From a virus (taxonomy: Duplodnaviria; Heunggongvirae; Uroviricota; Caudoviricetes): a stretch of DNA of 64,000 nt. How positions within the stretch are numbered: the stretch's first letter is position 1; each line of letters opens with the position of its first letter. The stretch is from the IMG/VR virus record IMGVR_UViG_3300033062_002687. One strand, written 5' to 3'. Shown here one piece after another: positions 279-58,582 of the stretch. The notes under the pieces were generated by a model, which made no database searches, was not told the DNA's origin, and saw only the letters and a list, made by a program, of their open reading frames with translations. The translations under genes and the position numbers were made by a program.

Positions 279-370
279 TGAGCGTACCAGGAATTGAACC
301 CGGACTTCAGAGTCTCTGCTTTTTTTTCAAAACCGTAGCTCTGTGCGCTTATCCATTACGCGATACGCCC
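279..370 (-). tRNA. tRNA-Arg(ACG) with 19-nt intron at 37/38 (314-332)
   Basis: CAGAG-CT-ACG-G[intron]A-CTCTG; BHB-like central helix CTAC/GCAG with an A34:C mismatch. Confidence 0.85.
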
Positions 371-527: not shown

Positions 528-530
528 ATT

Positions 531-635
531 GTGTCATAGCGGTGACAGATTTCTCTGCCACCTTAGACGACAACTCTACTTACCAACGGTGCATGTCCAT
601 TCCCGTTGTTTCCTCATTGTTACGCCGTGTGACAC
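531..635 (-). ncRNA. Candidate ~105-nt structured ncRNA
   Basis: Terminal stem GTGTCA/TGACAC enclosing a CAACGG/CCGTTG hairpin and a GGTGGCAGA-GAAA-TCTGTCACC GNRA hairpin. Confidence 0.5.
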
Positions 636-646
636 TATGACTATGA

Positions 647-761
647 TGGCTCGAGGGAGGATCGAACTCCCGTTCTCACGGATTCTTAGTTGAAATCCGC
701 AGGCATATAATTCACGGATACCAAGTATCAGCCGTGCGCCTTGCCACTTGGCCATCGAGCC
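647..761 (-). tRNA. tRNA-Ile, intron-containing, with GAT and TAT anticodon cassettes
   Basis: Acceptor GGCTCGA/TCGAGCC; CACGG/CCGTG stem; 43-nt insert 683-725; two BHB-like solutions. Confidence 0.85.
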
Positions 762-943: not shown

Positions 944-1450
944 TCAAATTAGTAGTTGATTCGTCTTTTCATGAATAATATAATGAACGTTTGATTTACA
1001 TGTATGATATTTCTTCGATATATAATTATATGACATCCCTGATAAACTATCAAGCCTCATATTTTTTATTTCTTCATCACTAAATTTTCTTAATTTGTTT
1101 GCAGCAATTTTTGCTGATCTCATACGAATATATGGAGACTTATCCATCATATTGTCAGATGCTGTACCTATTTTAATATTTTTAAAATCATTATCTAATG
1201 AATTACCGTTCACATGTCTGACACATATGCCTTTTTTAAATAAATATTCACCATACAATTGATAAGCCGCTAATCTATGAACATAGATCTGGGCAAATTC
1301 TCCATGAAATTGTACCGTGAATCTCCAATATTTGTATTTAGTATTCTGATAATTTAATTTTCTGAATTTTTTACCAAATTTTACTCTTCCATCTGACAAA
1401 ACTCTATATCCTTTTTCAAATGCCTTTTTGATTGCTTCCTTTTGATTCAT
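944..1450 (-). CDS. HNH homing endonuclease with C-terminal HTH
   Basis: YVHRLAA...VRHVNGNSLDNDFKNI...SDN motif; start moved to MNQKE because the listed ATG at 1483 lies inside the tRNA-Met intron. Confidence 0.85.
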   Translation of the reverse strand: MNQKEAIKKAFEKGYRVLSDGRVKFGKKFRKLNYQNTKYKYWRFTVQFHGEFAQIYVHRLAAYQLYGEYLFKKGICVRHVNGNSLDNDFKNIKIGTASDNMMDKSPYIRMRSAKIAANKLRKFSDEEIKNMRLDSLSGMSYNYISKKYHTCKSNVHYIIHEKTNQLLI

Positions 1451-1462
1451 GTTAAAATAAAG

Positions 1463-1568
1463 TAGCGGTACCAGGACTTTCATTCAGCAGCTTTATGCTA
1501 ACTGATTTTGAACCTGGGACCTATGGCTCATGAGGCCATCGGGAACGACCATACTCCCCCATACCGCT
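1463..1568 (-). tRNA. tRNA-Met(CAT), probably initiator, with 30-nt intron in the T-loop (59/60; 1477-1506)
   Basis: A1:U72 acceptor AGCGGTA/TACCGCT; ATGGC-CT-CAT-GA-GCCAT; BHB helix TTCA/TGAA restores the TTCAAAT loop. Confidence 0.85.
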
Positions 1569-2981: not shown

Positions 2982-3645
2982 TTAGCATGAAGCTTGGTTG
3001 TTTTTAAAGTTTTTGCCTTCGAGCTTGCTAATGAACTGATATATGCCGCAAAGATCAGTGTATTCTGTTGAATGTATCTCCTTTATCTTCGCCTGATTGT
3101 AGGTTGAAAGTGTGTCCAAAAATCTCTTAGAGTAAACTGAGGATATCCCAAGATAAAATTCCTCGGCGACTCCATGAAGCATCTGATCGATCTTCTTGAA
3201 CCAATGCGTAATCTCGACGTCGCGCGTACCTGCAAACCTTGCCGCAGACTGTCCTCCTTTTCGATGCTTATGCGGCACCAATGATTTTTCATGAAACACC
3301 TCCTCAATCTCACCATCTGAATAAACCTTAGCGAAAAAGCATTCGTCATAATCCATAACAAGGATTTGATACATCAATGTTTTTGTATCAGGAAACCTTA
3401 ACAGATCCTTACCACAAAAATAATGTTTTTGCTGCTTATCATATGGCTCAACTGTTAATTGTTCATCATTCCAATATAAAGATATGCCATCTGTTTTCTT
3501 GGCATTACTAAAGATAGTGAGCTATTTTGTTAAGGCCCGCAGTAGTGCTCTGCCTAGTTTGCCTGTCCTTAATGTTCTTTGCTGACATAATCTCTTGCCT
3601 TATGTTTGGTGCTTGTGCACCGACGGGGATATGAATACTTATCAT
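2982..3645 (-). CDS. aRF1/eRF1-like peptide chain release factor (N+M domains), expressed via a +1 frameshift at 3513-3508
   Basis: SD GGAGG + ATG 3645; NIKD (NIKS-like) in frame 0; YFCG (YxC) and KHRKGGQSAARF in the +1 frame; junction CTT TAG. Confidence 0.85.
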
Positions 3646-3664: not shown

Positions 3665-3796
3665 CGCCCAAGGCCGGAGTTGAACCGACACGCCTTTTAC
3701 AGCCCCTGTTTTCCAGTCCTGGCTTCAAGTCCTGATATTCGATTCCTGGCTCGAATTAGCAGACAGGTGAATCAGGCCATAGATTCTATCTTGGGC
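3665..3796 (-). tRNA. tRNA-Ser with a 46-nt insert holding GCT, CGA, TGA and GGA anticodon cassettes
   Basis: Acceptor GCCCAAG/CTTGGGC, G73, long variable arm, CCTGT/ACAGG anticodon stem. Confidence 0.85.
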
Positions 3797-3800
3797 AAAA

Positions 3801-3891
3801 AGCCACCATCCAGAGTTGCACTGGAATTAGCTAGTCACCTGGATATATATTTCCTACAGGCTAGCTGAACTTTCTGTTGTTCTATGATGGC
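3801..3891 (-). tRNA. tRNA-Thr(TGT) with 19-nt intron (3836-3854); unusual C33
   Basis: GCTAG-CC-TGT-A[intron]A-CTAGC; clean BHB CCTG/CAGG with TAG and TGA bulges. Confidence 0.82.
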
Positions 3892-3936: not shown

Positions 3937-4085
3937 TGCGGGTGTAGGGAATCGAACCCTATCCGCCACCTTGTGGCATCAGATTTCTTCCGAATGGATT
4001 TAAGTTCCGTCTTGAGTGACGTCCTAAGTTCTAAGTTTCGTCTCATTGATCTTAGTCTGACGCTTCTCCATCCAGCTCCACCCGC
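3937..4085 (-). tRNA. tRNA-Leu with a 65-nt insert holding AAG, TAG, CAA and TAA anticodon cassettes
   Basis: Acceptor GCGGGTG/CACCCGC, A73, long variable arm GCCAC/GTGGC, TCAGA/TCTGA stem. Confidence 0.85.
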
Positions 4086-4215: not shown

Positions 4216-4322
4216 TGGGACTGACCGGATTTGAACCGGTACCGACTGGTTCCTCCTTCCTTTCATCCTATAACTCTCTGAGACCTGGAGCCAGTAATTC
4301 TGCCTGATTAAAATACAATCCC
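4216..4322 (-). tRNA. tRNA-Trp(CCA) with 34-nt intron (4251-4284)
   Basis: ACTGG-CT-CCA-G[intron]A-CCAGT; central helix CTCC/GGAG. Confidence 0.88.
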
Positions 4323-4323
4323 G

Positions 4324-4478
4324 CGGGCATCGAAGGACTTGCACCTTCTTCCTCCTGTTCACTGTTATCTTCACCAAGCACAAGAGTGGTCCCTCGTGGA
4401 AATGACATCAATGGACTTTGGTTTCCATTGGTGAATGATGCTAACAGACAGGCGCTCATCTATATGAGCTTGATGCCC
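4324..4478 (-). tRNA. tRNA-Asn(GTT) with 82-nt intron (4360-4441)
   Basis: CCTGT-CT-GTT-A[intron]A-ACAGG; central helix CTGT/ACAG; intron stem TTCACCAA/TTGGTGAA. Confidence 0.88.
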
Positions 4479-6858: not shown

Positions 6859-7374
6859 TTAGGAGCATTTTTTTCTCATCATAAATTTATTTGCAAGATA
6901 CTCCTCATCATCTTGCGAAAAGCCCTTTCGCATCTTCATATGGTCCAAAACATGATGATGCCCAACTTCATGAGGAATAACGTATTCATCCATATATTTT
7001 TGGAGCTCATGCCTCTCGTCAAGCTCAGGTATCATCTTTTTGTATCTCATACCTTTCTTTGTTTTGATCACTGGTTCTGAATAAACATTGATGCGATCAG
7101 CCTTATCAGAATATTGAGCAAATGCCTTAGTTTGCTCAGTAAAAGAAAGCTTTGAAGGAGGCCTGAATGAAACCTCCTTTAAGCCTGTTAGCTGCTCTTC
7201 CGGCAGTGTTTCTAATACCCTCTTTGCCTCTTGAGGAGAGATCGGGTAAACATGATTCTTATATGTAGACTTAACTGTGATTGGAATTTTCACCTTACCT
7301 TTCTTCACGAATGCTGCTGTCCTGATGCCTTTTCTCGCCATTCTATGTCTCCAAGATTCCCATTTCCATGTCAT
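6859..7374 (-). CDS. Tag-family protein, zincin-like metallopeptidase
   Basis: WESWRHRMARKGIRT tag; HEVGH with downstream EE. Confidence 0.75.
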   Translation of the reverse strand: MTWKWESWRHRMARKGIRTAAFVKKGKVKIPITVKSTYKNHVYPISPQEAKRVLETLPEEQLTGLKEVSFRPPSKLSFTEQTKAFAQYSDKADRINVYSEPVIKTKKGMRYKKMIPELDERHELQKYMDEYVIPHEVGHHHVLDHMKMRKGFSQDDEEYLANKFMMRKKCS

Positions 7375-8330
7375 TGTTTATCAACTCCTTCAATCTTCAT
7401 CCAAGCAGCTTTTACTGCAGGCTTCTTATCAGGATATACATGCTTAAGATCTTTATATGATGCACCTTGATCCTTTAACCATGAAACATCATCTAGGAAT
7501 TCACGAGAGACTGTCGGCAAAGGATCATATTGCTTACGTCGACCAACAAGCTGAGGACCAATTGAAGGTTCTGACCAGGTTGAAGTTGGTTTCTTTGCAT
7601 CATATTTATTATCTTTTTTTATAAATTCTTCTATTTCTTCATCAGAATAATCCAATAATTTACCTATTTTTTTATGAAACACAGGATTATGTTTGATCTC
7701 TTTTGTTGGGATTGATTCATAAATATTTTTCAATTCACGAGCAACATGTTCTTTTTCAGGTTGAAAATACAGGAAATCGTGATAAAGTGGTGGAATATCA
7801 TGCTCAACAGTCAACATCGGCAAATTTGTTTTAAGCGAATGCCCTGACATAACAACCGCTTTGTTTCCTGATTCGACTTCTTTAAGCTGTTCTTCATCTG
7901 ACATCTCGGAAAATTTTTTAGCTTGAAAAAGCTTAATACGCCTTTTTCTATCAATCTCATCCTGATACTTCATTTTTGCAAGAATTTCATCAGGATTTTG
8001 TTCAATAAGATTTTTGAATTCCTCATTTGAATAAGAAGAATCAATTGCCTTAAACCTAGTTCTTGCAAATTTTCTCTTTGCTAATTCATCCTTCCCCTCC
8101 TCAAATAATCGCTTCATATTACTTAAAATCTGCTCAGGTGATTCTCCATGTATGGAGGTTACTGGAACTGAATCATCCATAACTCTTATGAATTCCTTTC
8201 TTGCCAAATACCTACTGTTCGCTTTATCATATTTTGTTTTTATGCCACGAGCTGCTAGAGCATGCTGCCAACTATGCAGAAACCATCCTTTTCCAAACGA
8301 CTGCTTGTATTTTTGCTGTAGATTCATCAT
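7371..8330 (-). CDS. Tag-family multi-module protein
   Basis: GWFLHSWQHALAARGIKT tag. Confidence 0.75.
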   Translation of the reverse strand: MMNLQQKYKQSFGKGWFLHSWQHALAARGIKTKYDKANSRYLARKEFIRVMDDSVPVTSIHGESPEQILSNMKRLFEEGKDELAKRKFARTRFKAIDSSYSNEEFKNLIEQNPDEILAKMKYQDEIDRKRRIKLFQAKKFSEMSDEEQLKEVESGNKAVVMSGHSLKTNLPMLTVEHDIPPLYHDFLYFQPEKEHVARELKNIYESIPTKEIKHNPVFHKKIGKLLDYSDEEIEEFIKKDNKYDAKKPTSTWSEPSIGPQLVGRRKQYDPLPTVSREFLDDVSWLKDQGASYKDLKHVYPDKKPAVKAAWMKIEGVDKQ

Positions 8331-9196
8331 AGACCCCACTGATGCCTTTTTCTTGGACTAATCCATTTATCACCAGATGGCTCATCATCTTGATAATCAT
8401 CTTCATTGCGTATTTTCTTTTTGACTTGATATTTCATTGCCTTAAAAACATCCTTTTCTTCCTTAGACATATTTTCTGTTGCTTTTTGTAATTTTTCTTT
8501 CTGTAATTCCTTCGATAACTTCATCGCACCTGTAGATCCAACAGCCTCGGTGACAGGAACACCACGCTTATATATTTGTTTTTTCATTCTTTCTGTAAAA
8601 TGTACAGCTCTTTTTTCTGCACCAAGCGGCTCATGTTTTGTGATAAGATCATCCCATGTCCACTCTTTTGAATCAGAAGGCTTTCCTTCAATCTCTTTCC
8701 AATTACCAGTAGATTCATCAAAAATACTTGGCAAACCTTTCTTTCTTCTAGCTTCATCCTCTCTGAAATGAGCATATTCATGAAAAAATGAACTTTCTGA
8801 ACCAGGCATATGAGCATATTTCAAACTAATAAATGGAATTTGACTTTTATTTGTGCGTCCATATTGCGCACTAGTTTCAAATTCAGAAGCACCAGATTCA
8901 TCATGCTCATATGCAACTTTTTTATCAGCCATTTCTTTAATTATACCTGGTCTGATTTTCTCATAGGTTTCTAAAGCATGGATCACAGCATCACGATCTT
9001 TTGGTGAAATATTTTTATTAATTTCTATCTTTTCTCTCTTACCTTCTAAAGAATAAGGAACATGAACTAAATCTGGATATATTTTTCCTTCATGTTTAAA
9101 GACAAAATGTCTAGTTTTGATGCCTTTGGCTGCTAACATGTGTCGCCAACTATCTTTAAACCAACCCTTCATGTTGAACTTGTATTTTGGGTTCAT
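8327..9196 (-). CDS. Tag-family protein, zincin-like
   Basis: Tag; HEYAH...EKRA. Confidence 0.75.
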   Translation of the reverse strand: MNPKYKFNMKGWFKDSWRHMLAAKGIKTRHFVFKHEGKIYPDLVHVPYSLEGKREKIEINKNISPKDRDAVIHALETYEKIRPGIIKEMADKKVAYEHDESGASEFETSAQYGRTNKSQIPFISLKYAHMPGSESSFFHEYAHFREDEARRKKGLPSIFDESTGNWKEIEGKPSDSKEWTWDDLITKHEPLGAEKRAVHFTERMKKQIYKRGVPVTEAVGSTGAMKLSKELQKEKLQKATENMSKEEKDVFKAMKYQVKKKIRNEDDYQDDEPSGDKWISPRKRHQWGL

Positions 9197-9954
9197 ATAT
9201 TCTCACGTTGAAATTTTTCTCTTTCGATTCGTTCTTTTTGTTTTAAAAATTCTTCATTAAACTTTTGTACTTTTTCACCATCTAATAAAATATTTTTCAA
9301 ACTATGCGGCTCCGAATATCTTGTAACATAATTTAATTCTTCCGGTAAGCCCATTCGTTTTCTGAATCGCTGAGCAAATTTTTCTGCCTCTTCCTCAGAT
9401 TGTGCATGAGGAATATTCTTTCTCGTTGATTTATAACCAAGAACTTCATGTCCAATCTCATGCGGCAAAACATCATAAAGATATTCTTTTCGAGCTTCTT
9501 CAGGAGTCAATTCCATACCAGCAATAACAAAAGTTGATGGTTTAGTCTTTCTTGACCTAAATGGTTTTGTAAATAGAACAATTCTTCCTTCAGTAAAAGC
9601 CTGTCCATAAGTTCCTGAAGCGCCGAGAAGCATTGACGACGGAGCTTTTATCTCAACTTTTTTGACTGAAGCTTTTAATTCCTCTGGAGTCATCATTTCA
9701 ATCATTCCTTTTATCTCTTTTTCGGTAACAGGAGACCTATGAGTCTTTGGAAGATTTGACTGAATAACATCAATAGATGTTGGCTCGAGCTCGAACTTTT
9801 TGCCTCTTAAAAGCTTTATCCTGGTCTGATCTTCACCATAAGGCCAGGCTTTCTCAAGCAAAAATTTTCTTGTTTTGATACCTTTAGCCGCAAGCATATG
9901 TCTCCAACTATCTTTAAACCAACCTTTCATATTGAATTTGTATTTTGAAGTCAT
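9193..9954 (-). CDS. Tag-family protein, zincin-like
   Basis: Tag; LPHEIGH...EEEAEKFA. Confidence 0.75.
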   Translation of the reverse strand: MTSKYKFNMKGWFKDSWRHMLAAKGIKTRKFLLEKAWPYGEDQTRIKLLRGKKFELEPTSIDVIQSNLPKTHRSPVTEKEIKGMIEMMTPEELKASVKKVEIKAPSSMLLGASGTYGQAFTEGRIVLFTKPFRSRKTKPSTFVIAGMELTPEEARKEYLYDVLPHEIGHEVLGYKSTRKNIPHAQSEEEAEKFAQRFRKRMGLPEELNYVTRYSEPHSLKNILLDGEKVQKFNEEFLKQKERIEREKFQRENI

Positions 9955-9963
9955 CTCATATCC

Positions 9964-10644
9964 TTATCTATCTTCAGCTAAATCTTCAGCTAATATTTTC
10001 TCCGATAGCTTTTTGCTTTTATCTAATCTGGCCTGCCGTACAATTTTTAAAGCCTGAGGATTTAACCAGGCTGTTGACTCAGCATCCCATGAGTAAACGC
10101 TTTCAAAAGGATCTTGTTTATCTAAGCGACGATGAAAATTATGTCCTTCCATAGCCGTTTCCTTTGGCACTCTAATAGCATCCCAGTCCTTGCTCATAGC
10201 CTTCCAATCGACATTATGCAAACCTGTATGATGTAGTAAAGGAGTTTTAGCTGGATAATTTTTTGTTAAATAATCAAAATCCTCTTCTGTATCGACCTGA
10301 AATATTCGTGCATCTGATTTTGGTTTAAGCAAAGTTCCTTTTTTATCATGCTTGAAATCTGCATTTATTGCCCAATCCTGCCAATCACTTTCAACTTCTC
10401 CTTCAGGAGTATATGTTGAAGTCCACAACACACCACCAGGCTTACCTATACCCCGATGTATATTAGTTACTTCGGCAGGAATGAGTCTTTTTTTTATTCT
10501 CCTACCTGAGTGAAGCTGAAGACCGATTGACTCTGGAGAAACTTTAGGCATTTGATACTTTCTTGTTTTTATTCCCTTAGCTGCTAGCATATGTCGCCAG
10601 CTATCTTTGAACCATCCTTTCGTATTGAACTTGTATTTATTCAT
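9964..10644 (-). CDS. Tag-family protein, possible ADP-ribosyltransferase-like fold
   Basis: Tag; H...LWTST...WDAES pattern (fold assignment is inference). Confidence 0.55.
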   Translation of the reverse strand: MNKYKFNTKGWFKDSWRHMLAAKGIKTRKYQMPKVSPESIGLQLHSGRRIKKRLIPAEVTNIHRGIGKPGGVLWTSTYTPEGEVESDWQDWAINADFKHDKKGTLLKPKSDARIFQVDTEEDFDYLTKNYPAKTPLLHHTGLHNVDWKAMSKDWDAIRVPKETAMEGHNFHRRLDKQDPFESVYSWDAESTAWLNPQALKIVRQARLDKSKKLSEKILAEDLAEDR

Positions 10645-11657
10645 GGTGTATATCTCCAATCCTTTTCAGTCTTTTTCTTTGACCTTAGAGGCAACTCTTG
10701 CCTCTTAACATACTTATCATAATATCTTTCAGGTAGCGATAGATCCATGAATTCAGGTAATCTTTTTTGCTTTCTAGCTTCCCATTCAATATCAAATTCA
10801 CTTGGTGCAGGCTTAAACGAAACTTTTCTTCCTTTTCTAAATTGAGCTGCTCTTCTATCTGCAAATTTCTCACCAACGTCAGGAGATTCGATATGAGCAA
10901 GTTCATGGGGCAAAACATGATAAAATATTTCCTTCTTTACTTTTTGTTCTGATTTTGGATTGAATAACTGAAAATGAGCCCCACCTACCTTTTCTTCACC
11001 CGTATCTACTTCTCTGTATATGGGCGATCCAGGAATATGAATCTGCTGTCTATATCCCCAAGCTGTACCGCGCGGCCCTGGATCAAAACCTCCCAAATCA
11101 ATTATCTTTACTGGAGCAAGTTCCTTTGGTTTCATTCTTTCTATAAAATCCTTCATTTCCTTTTCAGAAATAAGATTCTTGAATCTTACTGGTTTAAACT
11201 TTCCCTCTTCAATCATTATTTGCTCAGGATAGGTTAAAATAGGCTTTTCTTTTAATTCTTCAGGTGTTACTTCCTTTATTTCAATCTCCGTTGATTCTAA
11301 AAGAGGTTTATCATCGTGATCATATTTATGTTTAGGTATAAATCTTGTCTGACCTTTTCCGAGAGGCCAAGCTTTTTCAAGCTGATATTTTCTTGATTTT
11401 CTCTCGTTAATGATCTTATTAATTTCTCCTGACAAATATTCACCAGTTTGTAACCCCTGATGACAACAAACACACATGCCATTAACTATTATGTGTTTAT
11501 CCTTCTCATTACAAGTAATACAACCATCTTGTAGATGAGCCTCTGGAATTATTTTCTTTGGTTTACTTAATAAAAATTTCTTTGTTTTAATGCCTTTGGC
11601 TGCTAACATATGCCTCCATGATTCTTTCCACCAACCTCTCATGCTGAACTTATTCAT
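10641..11657 (-). CDS. Tag-family protein, Zn-finger plus zincin-like
   Basis: Tag; CxxC...CxxC; LPHELAH...EKFAD; paralog of 9193-9954. Confidence 0.75.
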   Translation of the reverse strand: MNKFSMRGWWKESWRHMLAAKGIKTKKFLLSKPKKIIPEAHLQDGCITCNEKDKHIIVNGMCVCCHQGLQTGEYLSGEINKIINERKSRKYQLEKAWPLGKGQTRFIPKHKYDHDDKPLLESTEIEIKEVTPEELKEKPILTYPEQIMIEEGKFKPVRFKNLISEKEMKDFIERMKPKELAPVKIIDLGGFDPGPRGTAWGYRQQIHIPGSPIYREVDTGEEKVGGAHFQLFNPKSEQKVKKEIFYHVLPHELAHIESPDVGEKFADRRAAQFRKGRKVSFKPAPSEFDIEWEARKQKRLPEFMDLSLPERYYDKYVKRQELPLRSKKKTEKDWRYTP

Positions 11658-12325
11658 TATTTCACTTCTTTTCGAAGAAGCATATCACGAATCCTGTCTA
11701 AATCCTCATGCTTCTTAAATGATTCCCCATATTTATGAGCTTCCTTTTCAATATCATGTGAATCCCATTGTTTTGCTAATTCTTCTTTTAATTTTGACAA
11801 ATCCTTATGTTCCTTTACTTGTTTAACATGCATAAACTCATGACCTAATGACTCAGTGAGATGAAGAGGCTGTGATATAAAGATACCTCCTTTATCAAGC
11901 AAAGGCCCTAGATGTTTTTCTTGTGGAGCAACTATTCCTTCAGTAAAATGTTCTTTTGCAATCCCAATAGACATTTTATCGCCTAATTCGGTCTGGGAAA
12001 TTAGCCGTCCAGCAGCTGGAATCCTTAATAATCGTCCAGATTTATGAATCAATGGCATACCTATATCATAAGCAGGCTGAACACCAATTGTTAAATTTTT
12101 ACCTTTTTTCATATCAAGCCATTCAGGATGTTTTGCGATTTGTTTAACTATAATTTTACGTTCTCTTGGAGTAACTTCAGAAGAAAAAAATATTCCTTTA
12201 GAAGGTAATTGTTCCCTAAATAACTTACCGCCAAAATATTTCCTTGTCTTGATGCCTCTAGCTGATAGCATATGCCTCCATGATTCTTTCCACCAGCCGC
12301 GCATATCGAACTTGTATTTATTCAT
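11657..12325 (-). CDS. Tag-family protein, zincin-like
   Basis: Tag; LGHEFMHVKQ...EKEA. Confidence 0.75.
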   Translation of the reverse strand: MNKYKFDMRGWWKESWRHMLSARGIKTRKYFGGKLFREQLPSKGIFFSSEVTPRERKIIVKQIAKHPEWLDMKKGKNLTIGVQPAYDIGMPLIHKSGRLLRIPAAGRLISQTELGDKMSIGIAKEHFTEGIVAPQEKHLGPLLDKGGIFISQPLHLTESLGHEFMHVKQVKEHKDLSKLKEELAKQWDSHDIEKEAHKYGESFKKHEDLDRIRDMLLRKEVK

Positions 12326-57859: not shown

Positions 57860-58081
57860 TTATTTGAATAGGTTGCCGAGCTTTATAAAAATCCCAATTA
57901 TAAAACCAAGAACAACTAACAAAACTATAAGATCAAGCCATTCGACAACTGCGGCTCCGGTAGTGCCAAGCCCATCCACAACAACATCCTTGAAGTCATT
58001 TTTGCTATATGCATTATTAACTATGCAGACATGTGTTGTTTGGTTCATTGTTCCGCCAACGCCGCAATATCCATATGCCAT
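57860..58081 (-). CDS. Small coat/pilin-like protein, copy 3 (73 aa, with Cys loop)
   Basis: DFK..VVDG.G..GAA.VEWLDLIVLL.VLGFIIGIF.KLGNLFK; GGAGG RBS. Confidence 0.8.
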   Translation of the reverse strand: MAYGYCGVGGTMNQTTHVCIVNNAYSKNDFKDVVVDGLGTTGAAVVEWLDLIVLLVVLGFIIGIFIKLGNLFK

Positions 58082-58173
58082 TGATTTTCCTCCCTGTTTA
58101 AAATATATTGAGAGAATAAAAATTCTCTCGAAAAATAAATAAAAAAAATTTTCTTCCTTATTTCAGCACAAGC

Positions 58174-58341
58174 TTACTTAAAGAGATTGCCTAGCTTTAC
58201 GAAGATTCCGATTATAAAGCCAAGGACGATTAGCAGGACTATCAGGTCAAGCCATTCGACGATTGCCGCCCCGACCGTTCCCATTCCGTCCACAACGATC
58301 AGCTTAAAATCGCTCTTATCGTAACTTTTTGCATATGCCAT
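58174..58341 (-). CDS. Small coat/pilin-like protein, copy 2 (55 aa)
   Basis: Hand-translated MAYAKSYDKSDFKLIVVDGMGTVGAAIVEWLDLIVLLIVLGFIIGIFVKLGNLFK; AAGGAGG RBS. Confidence 0.85.
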   Translation of the reverse strand: MAYAKSYDKSDFKLIVVDGMGTVGAAIVEWLDLIVLLIVLGFIIGIFVKLGNLFK

Positions 58342-58411
58342 TTGTTTTTTCCTCCTTGATGTTTTTTAACTATGAGCCCTATAAAGAGCAAAAAAATATT
58401 TTTTATCTGTC

Positions 58412-58582
58412 TTACTTAAACAGATTGCCTAGCTTTACAAAGATTCCGATTATGAATCCAAGTACAACCAGTAAGACGATCAAATCAAGCCACTCAACAA
58501 TTGCGGCGCCGCTGACGCCCATTGCGTCAACAATTATGTTTTTGAAATCGCCTTTTGTATAGTTGTTTCCCAAATACACCAT
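58412..58582 (-). CDS. Small coat/pilin-like protein, copy 1 (56 aa)
   Basis: Hand-translated MVYLGNNYTKGDFKNIIVDAMGVSGAAIVEWLDLIVLLVVLGFIIGIFVKLGNLFK; AAGGAGG RBS. Confidence 0.85.
   Translation of the reverse strand: MVYLGNNYTKGDFKNIIVDAMGVSGAAIVEWLDLIVLLVVLGFIIGIFVKLGNLFK

Follow-up and report, generated by a model that had tools for sequence, protein, structure and literature searches.

The swapping of synonymous anticodons between shared tRNA parts has been described in trans only, in Caldivirga and Nanoarchaeum, as far as the accessible text of two reviews goes (PMC4390854, PMC4033280). According to the same text, the tri-split tRNA-Gly of Caldivirga maquilingensis and the split tRNA-Glu of Nanoarchaeum equitans exchange synonymous pieces between shared 5' and 3' parts via BHB motifs, and the pieces come from separate genes joined in trans. 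The other related family is that of the multi-intron genes of Thermoproteales and ARMAN, in which BHB motifs or their relaxed hBH and HBh' forms are found at 37/38 and also at non-canonical positions, among them 29/30, 30/31 and 59/60; the accessible parts of the sources report that one intron may need to be removed before the next motif forms, and that all introns are removed to leave one tRNA (PMC4090602, PMC8450103). Where these two papers and PMC3293823 treat multi-intron archaeal tRNA genes and BHB variants, the parts available to us mention no alternative products.

Here we present a tRNA-Ser gene with four anticodons in a viral DNA window, the window being the whole stretch of 64,000 nucleotides that was analysed. 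Unlike the genes of C. maquilingensis and N. equitans, it is one contiguous gene on a viral carrier, of a design with up to four cassettes per gene, and the joining of split tRNAs in trans by leader sequences is absent, since every part lies inside 132 contiguous bases. The Ser gene would work like a tri-split tRNA but is not one. In contrast to the Thermoproteales and ARMAN genes, its acceptors are mutually exclusive, with one donor and another anticodon behind each of them. Methanopyrus kandleri is said to have a "composite" tRNA-Ile/Trp gene, proposed in silico around 2006, that gives two tRNAs from one gene by intron choice; the proposal reportedly concerned a single gene with non-synonymous products and came without comparative or RNA support. 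In the literature covered, mostly the main text of open-access papers, we came across no account of a tRNA spliced alternatively in cis, although such genes may figure in supplementary tRNA tables without comment. The logic is known in trans only, and as a gene type the cassette gene fits neither known family.

The tRNA-Ser gene

The Ser gene is located within a minus-strand tRNA array running from about 4480 to the window start. Its body is that of a type II tRNA, with a 7-bp acceptor stem, a long variable arm and G73, and a 46-nt insert lies within the anticodon loop. The parts are as follows.

3665..3796, minus strand: tRNA-Ser gene with four anticodon cassettes, GCT, CGA, TGA and GGA (from sequence, in silico splicing and shuffles)
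3762..3796, minus strand: shared 5' exon, positions 1-32; predicted cut after 3762
3757..3761, minus strand: cassette 1, U33, anticodon GCT (3760-3758) and A37
3738..3748, minus strand: acceptor 1 (CAGG, bulge) and cassette 2, anticodon CGA (3741-3739); predicted cut after 3743
3724..3734, minus strand: acceptor 2 and cassette 3, anticodon TGA (3727-3725); predicted cut after 3729
3711..3721, minus strand: acceptor 3 and terminal cassette 4, anticodon GGA (3714-3712); predicted cut after 3716
3665..3710, minus strand: shared 3' exon, positions 38-73, with the long variable arm and G73

The first-pass annotation, made from the letters alone, had placed four Ser anticodons on the minus strand, and all of them were re-read in place. 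In front of each downstream anticodon stand CAGG, a pair of nucleotides and U33, and directly behind it stands A37. The three CAGG copies (3748-3745, 3734-3731 and 3721-3718) form four of four Watson-Crick pairs with positions 27-30 (3767-3764), which bears out the earlier claim that this pairing sets U33, the anticodon and A37 in BHB register. In the 5' exon, positions 27-30 give the central helix and positions 22-26 (3772-3768) the outer BHB helix. The predicted 32/33 introns measure 19, 33 and 46 nt, while excision of the 37/38 intron (46 nt) alone would retain cassette 1. All upstream cassettes have one 37/38 3' site in common, and its partner strand, 3716-3713, also belongs to the element made up of acceptor 3 and cassette 4, with G3713 pairing C32. 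When the 46-nt insert was shuffled 20,000 times, a single synonymous cassette in register arose in 180 cases and two or more in none, compared with the three observed.

All four Ser forms spliced in silico are recognised by ARAGORN as tRNA-Ser, a test of the cloverleaf only, and 77 of 77 in silico spliced forms are recognised versus 3 of 37 unspliced genes. The unspliced Ser gene receives no call from ARAGORN or Rfam, the default settings miss both the Ser gene and the neighbouring Leu gene, and intron-aware ARAGORN reports one anticodon per gene.

Splice geometry and predicted folding

The 32/33 sites of the Ser gene have four Watson-Crick central pairs, an inner helix of 1-3 bp and an outer helix of 3-4 of 5 pairs, the resumed anticodon past the second bulge pairing D-stem positions 22-26 at 4, 4 and 3 of 5 positions. 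With this pairing to the 3' strand of the D-stem, these sites are close to full BHB motifs and less relaxed than the first-pass annotation had supposed. The weak site is the shared 37/38 one, where GCT, CGA and TGA each form 3 of 4 helix pairs and which overlaps the GGA cassette. In relatives, Ser cassettes that need the 37/38 helix pair at 1-3 of 4 positions, and this helix is often partial in cassette genes, compared with 4 of 4 pairs in 16 of 19 plain introns. The C32:intron pair is retained at the 37/38 junction of the window's Ser gene, and C32 or U32 pairs intron position -3 in 50 of 50 genes of the comparison below. Relaxed BHB motifs require a broad-specificity EndA, as stated in the accessible part of PMC5829648. 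A BHB-like fold in the D arm (14-nt excision) was rejected, as it would destroy that arm.

The GAA that follows position 34 in Ser also builds the outer helix with the D-stem. Because of this role, NGA cassettes could persist for structure alone, and therefore in the Ser gene taken alone only base 34 argues for decoding. Constrained folding, whose energy model takes no account of enzyme binding, gives the four Ser registers energies of 3.1, 3.1, 3.8 and 4.3 kcal/mol relative to the free ensemble, which lies below them all; no register therefore dominates.

One alternative, to which we give a small chance, is recursive splicing, where the middle cassettes would serve as stepping stones and the product would be GGA only, perhaps also GCT. 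Every 32/33 ligation restores the donor, NGAA pairs the D-stem regardless of base 34, and with a weak 37/38 helix onward splicing is predicted to be competitive in the window's intermediates: 1.2 versus 4.3 kcal/mol for onward 32/33 splicing and 37/38 exit from the CGA intermediate, and 5.2 versus 6.5 kcal/mol from the TGA intermediate. Since onward splicing is predicted as good or better in the window, the middle forms may be minor here. The relatives speak against recursion, however. By predicted energies, 37/38 exit after the first step is strongly favoured in the Ser genes of two related loci (L039 and L142) and favoured for the TGA form of a third (L014), and in L032 GCT stands downstream, at 30/31. 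In addition, two products would count as alternative splicing anyway.

Other tRNA genes in the array

The array also holds the following genes.

3937..4085, minus strand: tRNA-Leu with four anticodons, AAG (4053-4051), TAG (4033-4031), CAA (4014-4012) and TAA (4002-4000)
647..761, minus strand: two-anticodon tRNA-Ile, GAT at 729-727 and TAT at 709-707, with the cut predicted at 32/33
3801..3891, minus strand: tRNA-Thr(TGT), lying 4 nt upstream of the Ser gene; it has C33 and, at 37/38, a plain intron of 19 nt
4216..4322, minus strand: tRNA-Trp(CCA) with a plain 34-nt 37/38 BHB intron
4324..4478, minus strand: tRNA-Asn(GTT) with a plain 82-nt 37/38 BHB intron
1463..1568, minus strand: initiator-type tRNA-Met with A1-U72; a BHB-type intron of 30 nt interrupts its T-loop at 59/60
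279..370, minus strand: tRNA-Arg(ACG) with a plain 19-nt 37/38 intron

The four-anticodon Leu gene and the two-anticodon Ile gene had been overlooked in the first-pass annotation. In Leu, three GACG acceptors pair positions 25-28, with the cut predicted at 30/31; among 20,000 shuffles one gave two cassettes and none gave the observed three. For Ile, 57 of 20,000 shuffles gave one synonymous cassette, and a candidate third cassette was rejected because it fails the loop test. The 59/60 intron of the initiator-type tRNA-Met occupies a non-canonical site in an otherwise ordinary gene; given this intron and the plain 37/38 introns, non-canonical BHB sites are expected to be cut in the host.

Some further features of the array are recorded here. 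Position 8 is A in the Ser (3665-3796) and Asn (4324-4478) genes and G in the Leu gene (3937-4085) instead of U, and A8 is also found in the Ser genes of L014 and L039. Anticodons with A34, which are rare in archaea, recur in the virus group, for example Leu AAG (window 4053-4051) and Arg ACG (window 279-370), and further Ser ACT and Thr AGT cases occur among L147 61-171, L042 818-889 and L054 2330-2404. Between the Lys and Ile genes (528-646, minus strand) lies a tRNA-sized element with a 7-bp acceptor-like stem, without T-loop or anticodon arm. A free-standing HNH endonuclease is encoded between the iMet and Tyr tRNA genes (944-1483, minus strand).

Cassette genes in related loci

For comparison, 45 metagenome loci were fetched via alignment of the eRF1-like protein encoded near the Ser gene and picked regardless of tRNA, and IMG/VR loci were added through pattern scans. 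Among 243 tRNA candidates 57 bore inserts, and 37 were kept (two re-registered by hand) after dropping 8 of L098, a duplicate of L057, and 12 judged non-tRNA by eye. Another 13 distinct genes from L142, L147 and L150, one of them re-registered, bring the total to 50. Selection was by the Ile pattern for L057 and L072, the Ser pattern for L142 and the Arg pattern for L147 and L150, the other genes of these loci being unselected. In IMG/VR the Ile pattern had 55 matches, 3 of them in tRNA genes (two distinct), and in GTDB 30 matches with none in tRNA genes, the pattern being narrow and cellular cases still possible. The Ser pattern hit tRNA genes in 3 of 7 matches, two of which were the L057 gene again; 2 of 4 Arg matches parsed as Arg genes, with the L147 match unparsed; and the single Leu match was not in a tRNA gene. 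IMG/VR contained no match to an exact 23-nt pattern, 9 matches to a loose CAGG pattern, none of them in tRNA, and no relative of the eRF1-like neighbour; INPHARED phages gave no match. Two candidates were set aside, L035 AAG, with too little intron left, and an L017 Gly cassette, which fails the loop test.

The synonymy test took every downstream site with a fully paired 4-bp helix that restores the stem, Y32, position 33 and R37. Overall, 31 of 34 intron-bearing Ser, Leu, Ile and Arg genes have synonymous cassettes (Ser 8 of 9, Leu 8 of 8, Ile 9 of 10, Arg 6 of 7), versus 0 of 16 genes for other amino acids. The first-pass annotation had named non-synonymous triplets in homologs as grounds for refutation, and at the main registers the relatives did not bear this out: of the 47 products whose cut falls no later than 32/33, 41 carry an anticodon synonymous with the first one and six do not, compared with a null (300 shuffles) of 5.0 products, 0.39 synonymous and a maximum of 4, counts that are not independent events because the genes are related. 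None of the 41 cassettes repeats an anticodon of its own gene, which speaks against recursive splicing, as does the synonymy kept in Leu, Ile and Arg, whose cassettes do not use positions 35-37 for an outer helix of that kind. At 35/36, 9 of 9 products are synonymous (Arg TCT/TCG, Leu TAG/TAA; null 0.23) under a filter of at least three flanking pairs that was chosen after the first results were known. At 33/34, by comparison with a null of about 1.7 products, 0 of 9 are synonymous, and at 34/35, against a null of about 2.0, 2 of 8 are synonymous and 6 of 8 non-synonymous. Most products of these two registers are one-base shifts of the same long helices, and they constitute a mis-splicing risk that sequence alone cannot dismiss.

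The arrangement is retained while the letters change. The Ser order GCT, CGA, TGA, GGA is found again in L014, L039 and L142, with the helix CTGG/CCAG and different spacers, whereas in L032 the order is CGA, GCT, GGA, TGA and both 30/31 and 32/33 are used. The central helix follows the stem, being CCTG/CAGG in the window and CACC/GGTG and CCAG/CTGG in L032. The Ser genes of L057 and L150 have three cassettes and that of L147 two. Seven Ile genes combine GAT and TAT at 32/33; L150 does so at 29/30 and L147 at 27/28. The 32/33 helix of the seven genes is paired in 56 of 56 cells, with two pairs changed on both sides, and is matched by 2 of 500 shuffles, although the search pattern that yielded two of the seven itself specified part of the helix, and the 32/33 partner resembles positions 40-43.

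These layouts bear on two further readings. The cassettes could be a reservoir at the DNA level, from which deletion or recombination in the virus population switches the anticodon. Cassette number does vary from two to four among relatives, and slippage is possible because CAGG is a direct repeat of positions 40-43. Yet no repeat of the 5' exon precedes the resumed U33 to guide an in-register deletion, the acceptors at 30/31, 29/30 and 27/28 complement D-stem positions rather than copying the 3' stem, and one genome would have one anticodon and lose codon coverage; we regard such a reservoir as very improbable. Still less credible is neutral tandem duplication of the intron boundary in a decaying or single-product gene. 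The odd position-8 bases of the Ser, Leu and Asn genes and the apparently dead 30/31 acceptor of L020 Arg would suit it, but spacers diverge while acceptors and anticodons are retained, the anticodons are unrepeated and the layout occurs in 31 genes. The synonymy and no-repeat counts already largely refute it.

Relatives without cassettes (L028, L030, L037 and L042) have separate isoacceptor genes for the same sets. In L030, a plain-intron Ile(TAT) gene resembles the 3' part of the double Ile genes, which suggests the gain of an upstream anticodon-bearing intron. The L020 Arg gene (1623-1733) still has an acceptor at 30/31, with a cassette that does not pass the loop test, and L013 and L018 have CCT there; the L020 element is possibly a decayed cassette.

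Overall, the comparison supports the earlier proposal of alternative BHB splicing to synonymous isoacceptors, since the cassettes are conserved, never repeated, restricted to Ser, Leu, Ile and Arg, and in a complete relative stand in place of separate genes. Against alternative splicing count the six non-synonymous early-cut products, the weak 37/38 helix, shifted-register products above null, and an extra Leu(TAG) gene with C33 beside the cassette gene of L032.

A complete relative

A complete tailed virus of 79,464 bp, here G007, has terminal repeats, terminase, capsid, tail tube and PCNA. Just two proteins are common to it and the window, so it is a distant relative at best. Its tRNA set comprises 16 intronless genes, an intron-bearing Trp gene and a single cassette gene for every one of Ser, Leu, Ile and Arg, other intron-mode ARAGORN calls being set aside for very long inserts or odd anticodons. 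Under the general wobble rules, 812 of 1448 Ser codons are out of reach of the first Ser anticodon on its own, and 636 are out of reach of the last; for Ile, the first anticodon leaves ATA unread (705 of 1482 codons); and for Arg, the last anticodon by itself leaves 808 of 868 unread. By these counts, decoding in G007 requires first and later anticodons alike. Neither EndA nor RtcB is present among the G007 proteins, and host enzymes are therefore implied.

In or beside the G007 tRNA array (L150 1221-8155 and L154 3679-4401) are genes for Ro60/TROVE, RlaP, PTH2 and a CCA/poly(A) polymerase-type protein, a cluster that suggests an RNA repair module.

The first-pass annotation had also raised the alternative that the cassettes are decoys soaking up host anticodon nucleases, in the precursor or as excised introns. 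Phage tRNAs do counter tRNA-cleaving defences, as the accessible parts of PMC11555353 and PMC11464382 describe, and the Ro60, RlaP and CCA-type polymerase genes adjoin the G007 array. Decoys, however, would require neither BHB spacing nor synonymy with the tRNA body, whereas the cassettes stand exactly at splice geometry, are restricted to Ser, Leu, Ile and Arg genes and take the place of separate ones. This alternative is accordingly disfavoured, and we find it very unlikely.

The virus and its likely host

Among the 54 window proteins scanned are an HNH nuclease, an ATP-dependent ligase, a Cas4-like nuclease, Mom, a collagen-like tail fibre and an isolated eRF1 domain 2; none of the 54 matches a terminase or capsid protein. 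The same 54 proteins gave no EndA or RtcB family match, and neither did five related virus records in a scan that included three chance loci. Judged by its proteins, the BHB introns, and Tyr C1-G72 and iMet A1-U72, which we take to be archaeal tRNA identity features, the window likely belongs to a virus with an archaeal host.

The eRF1 domain 2 protein (2982-3377, minus strand) stands alone and has a GGQ motif; its relatives come from the 45 metagenome loci, many of them adjoining tRNA arrays. Seven tandem ORFs (6859-12325, minus strand) have in common an N-terminal motif of about 20 residues (W..SW.H.LA.KGIKT-like) and diverge downstream. Five of them have an HExxH motif, none has a Pfam match above cut-off, and the N-terminal motif is possibly a common packaging or targeting signal. 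In addition, three tandem paralogs at about 57860-58580 (minus strand), each a hydrophobic protein of 55-75 aa with a strong GGAGG site before it, look like small virion coat proteins.

Proposed mechanism

From the sequence and its comparison, we consider it highly probable that one Ser gene of a likely archaeal virus is processed by host endonuclease and ligase into up to four isoacceptors by alternative cis-splicing. The precursor would sample several folds, in which positions 27-30 pair any one of the three CAGG acceptors. A cut at 37/38 only would give GCT; a 32/33 cut to acceptor 1 or 2, then one at the shared 37/38 site, would give CGA or TGA; and a 32/33 cut to acceptor 3 would give GGA in one step. 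After a 32/33 cut and ligation, the anticodon arm would be regenerated with a shorter insert (27 or 13 nt), which may exit via 37/38 or splice onward. The ratio of the Ser forms would be set by competing folds of similar energy, the cutting and joining would be done by the host's tRNA splicing endonuclease and ligase, and the same scheme would apply to the Leu gene (four forms) and the Ile gene (two forms) nearby.

A wider proposal seems to us reasonably probable: that this whole group of archaeal viruses uses one gene per amino acid and makes its full set of isoacceptors by splicing anticodon micro-exons alternatively in cis, a design that arose repeatedly at six registers (27/28, 29/30, 30/31, 32/33, 34/35 and 35/36). 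The four Ser and the four Leu forms would then all be made here, in ratios tuned by competing folds.

Implications

The cassette design saves just a few hundred bases. It would allow one gene per amino acid and yet the reading of split codon families, and it may tune isoacceptor ratios or avoid paralogous tRNA genes. As standard tools call one anticodon or none per gene, the tRNA sets of such viruses are undercounted. Incomplete tRNA sets have been noted in DPANN and Asgard genomes, as the accessible part of PMC5829648 reports, and cassette-type genes could partly explain them. If true, the present case would give the first description known to us of a tRNA that is alternatively spliced in cis, with several decoding specificities in one gene, and it would show splice-site choice operating without a spliceosome.
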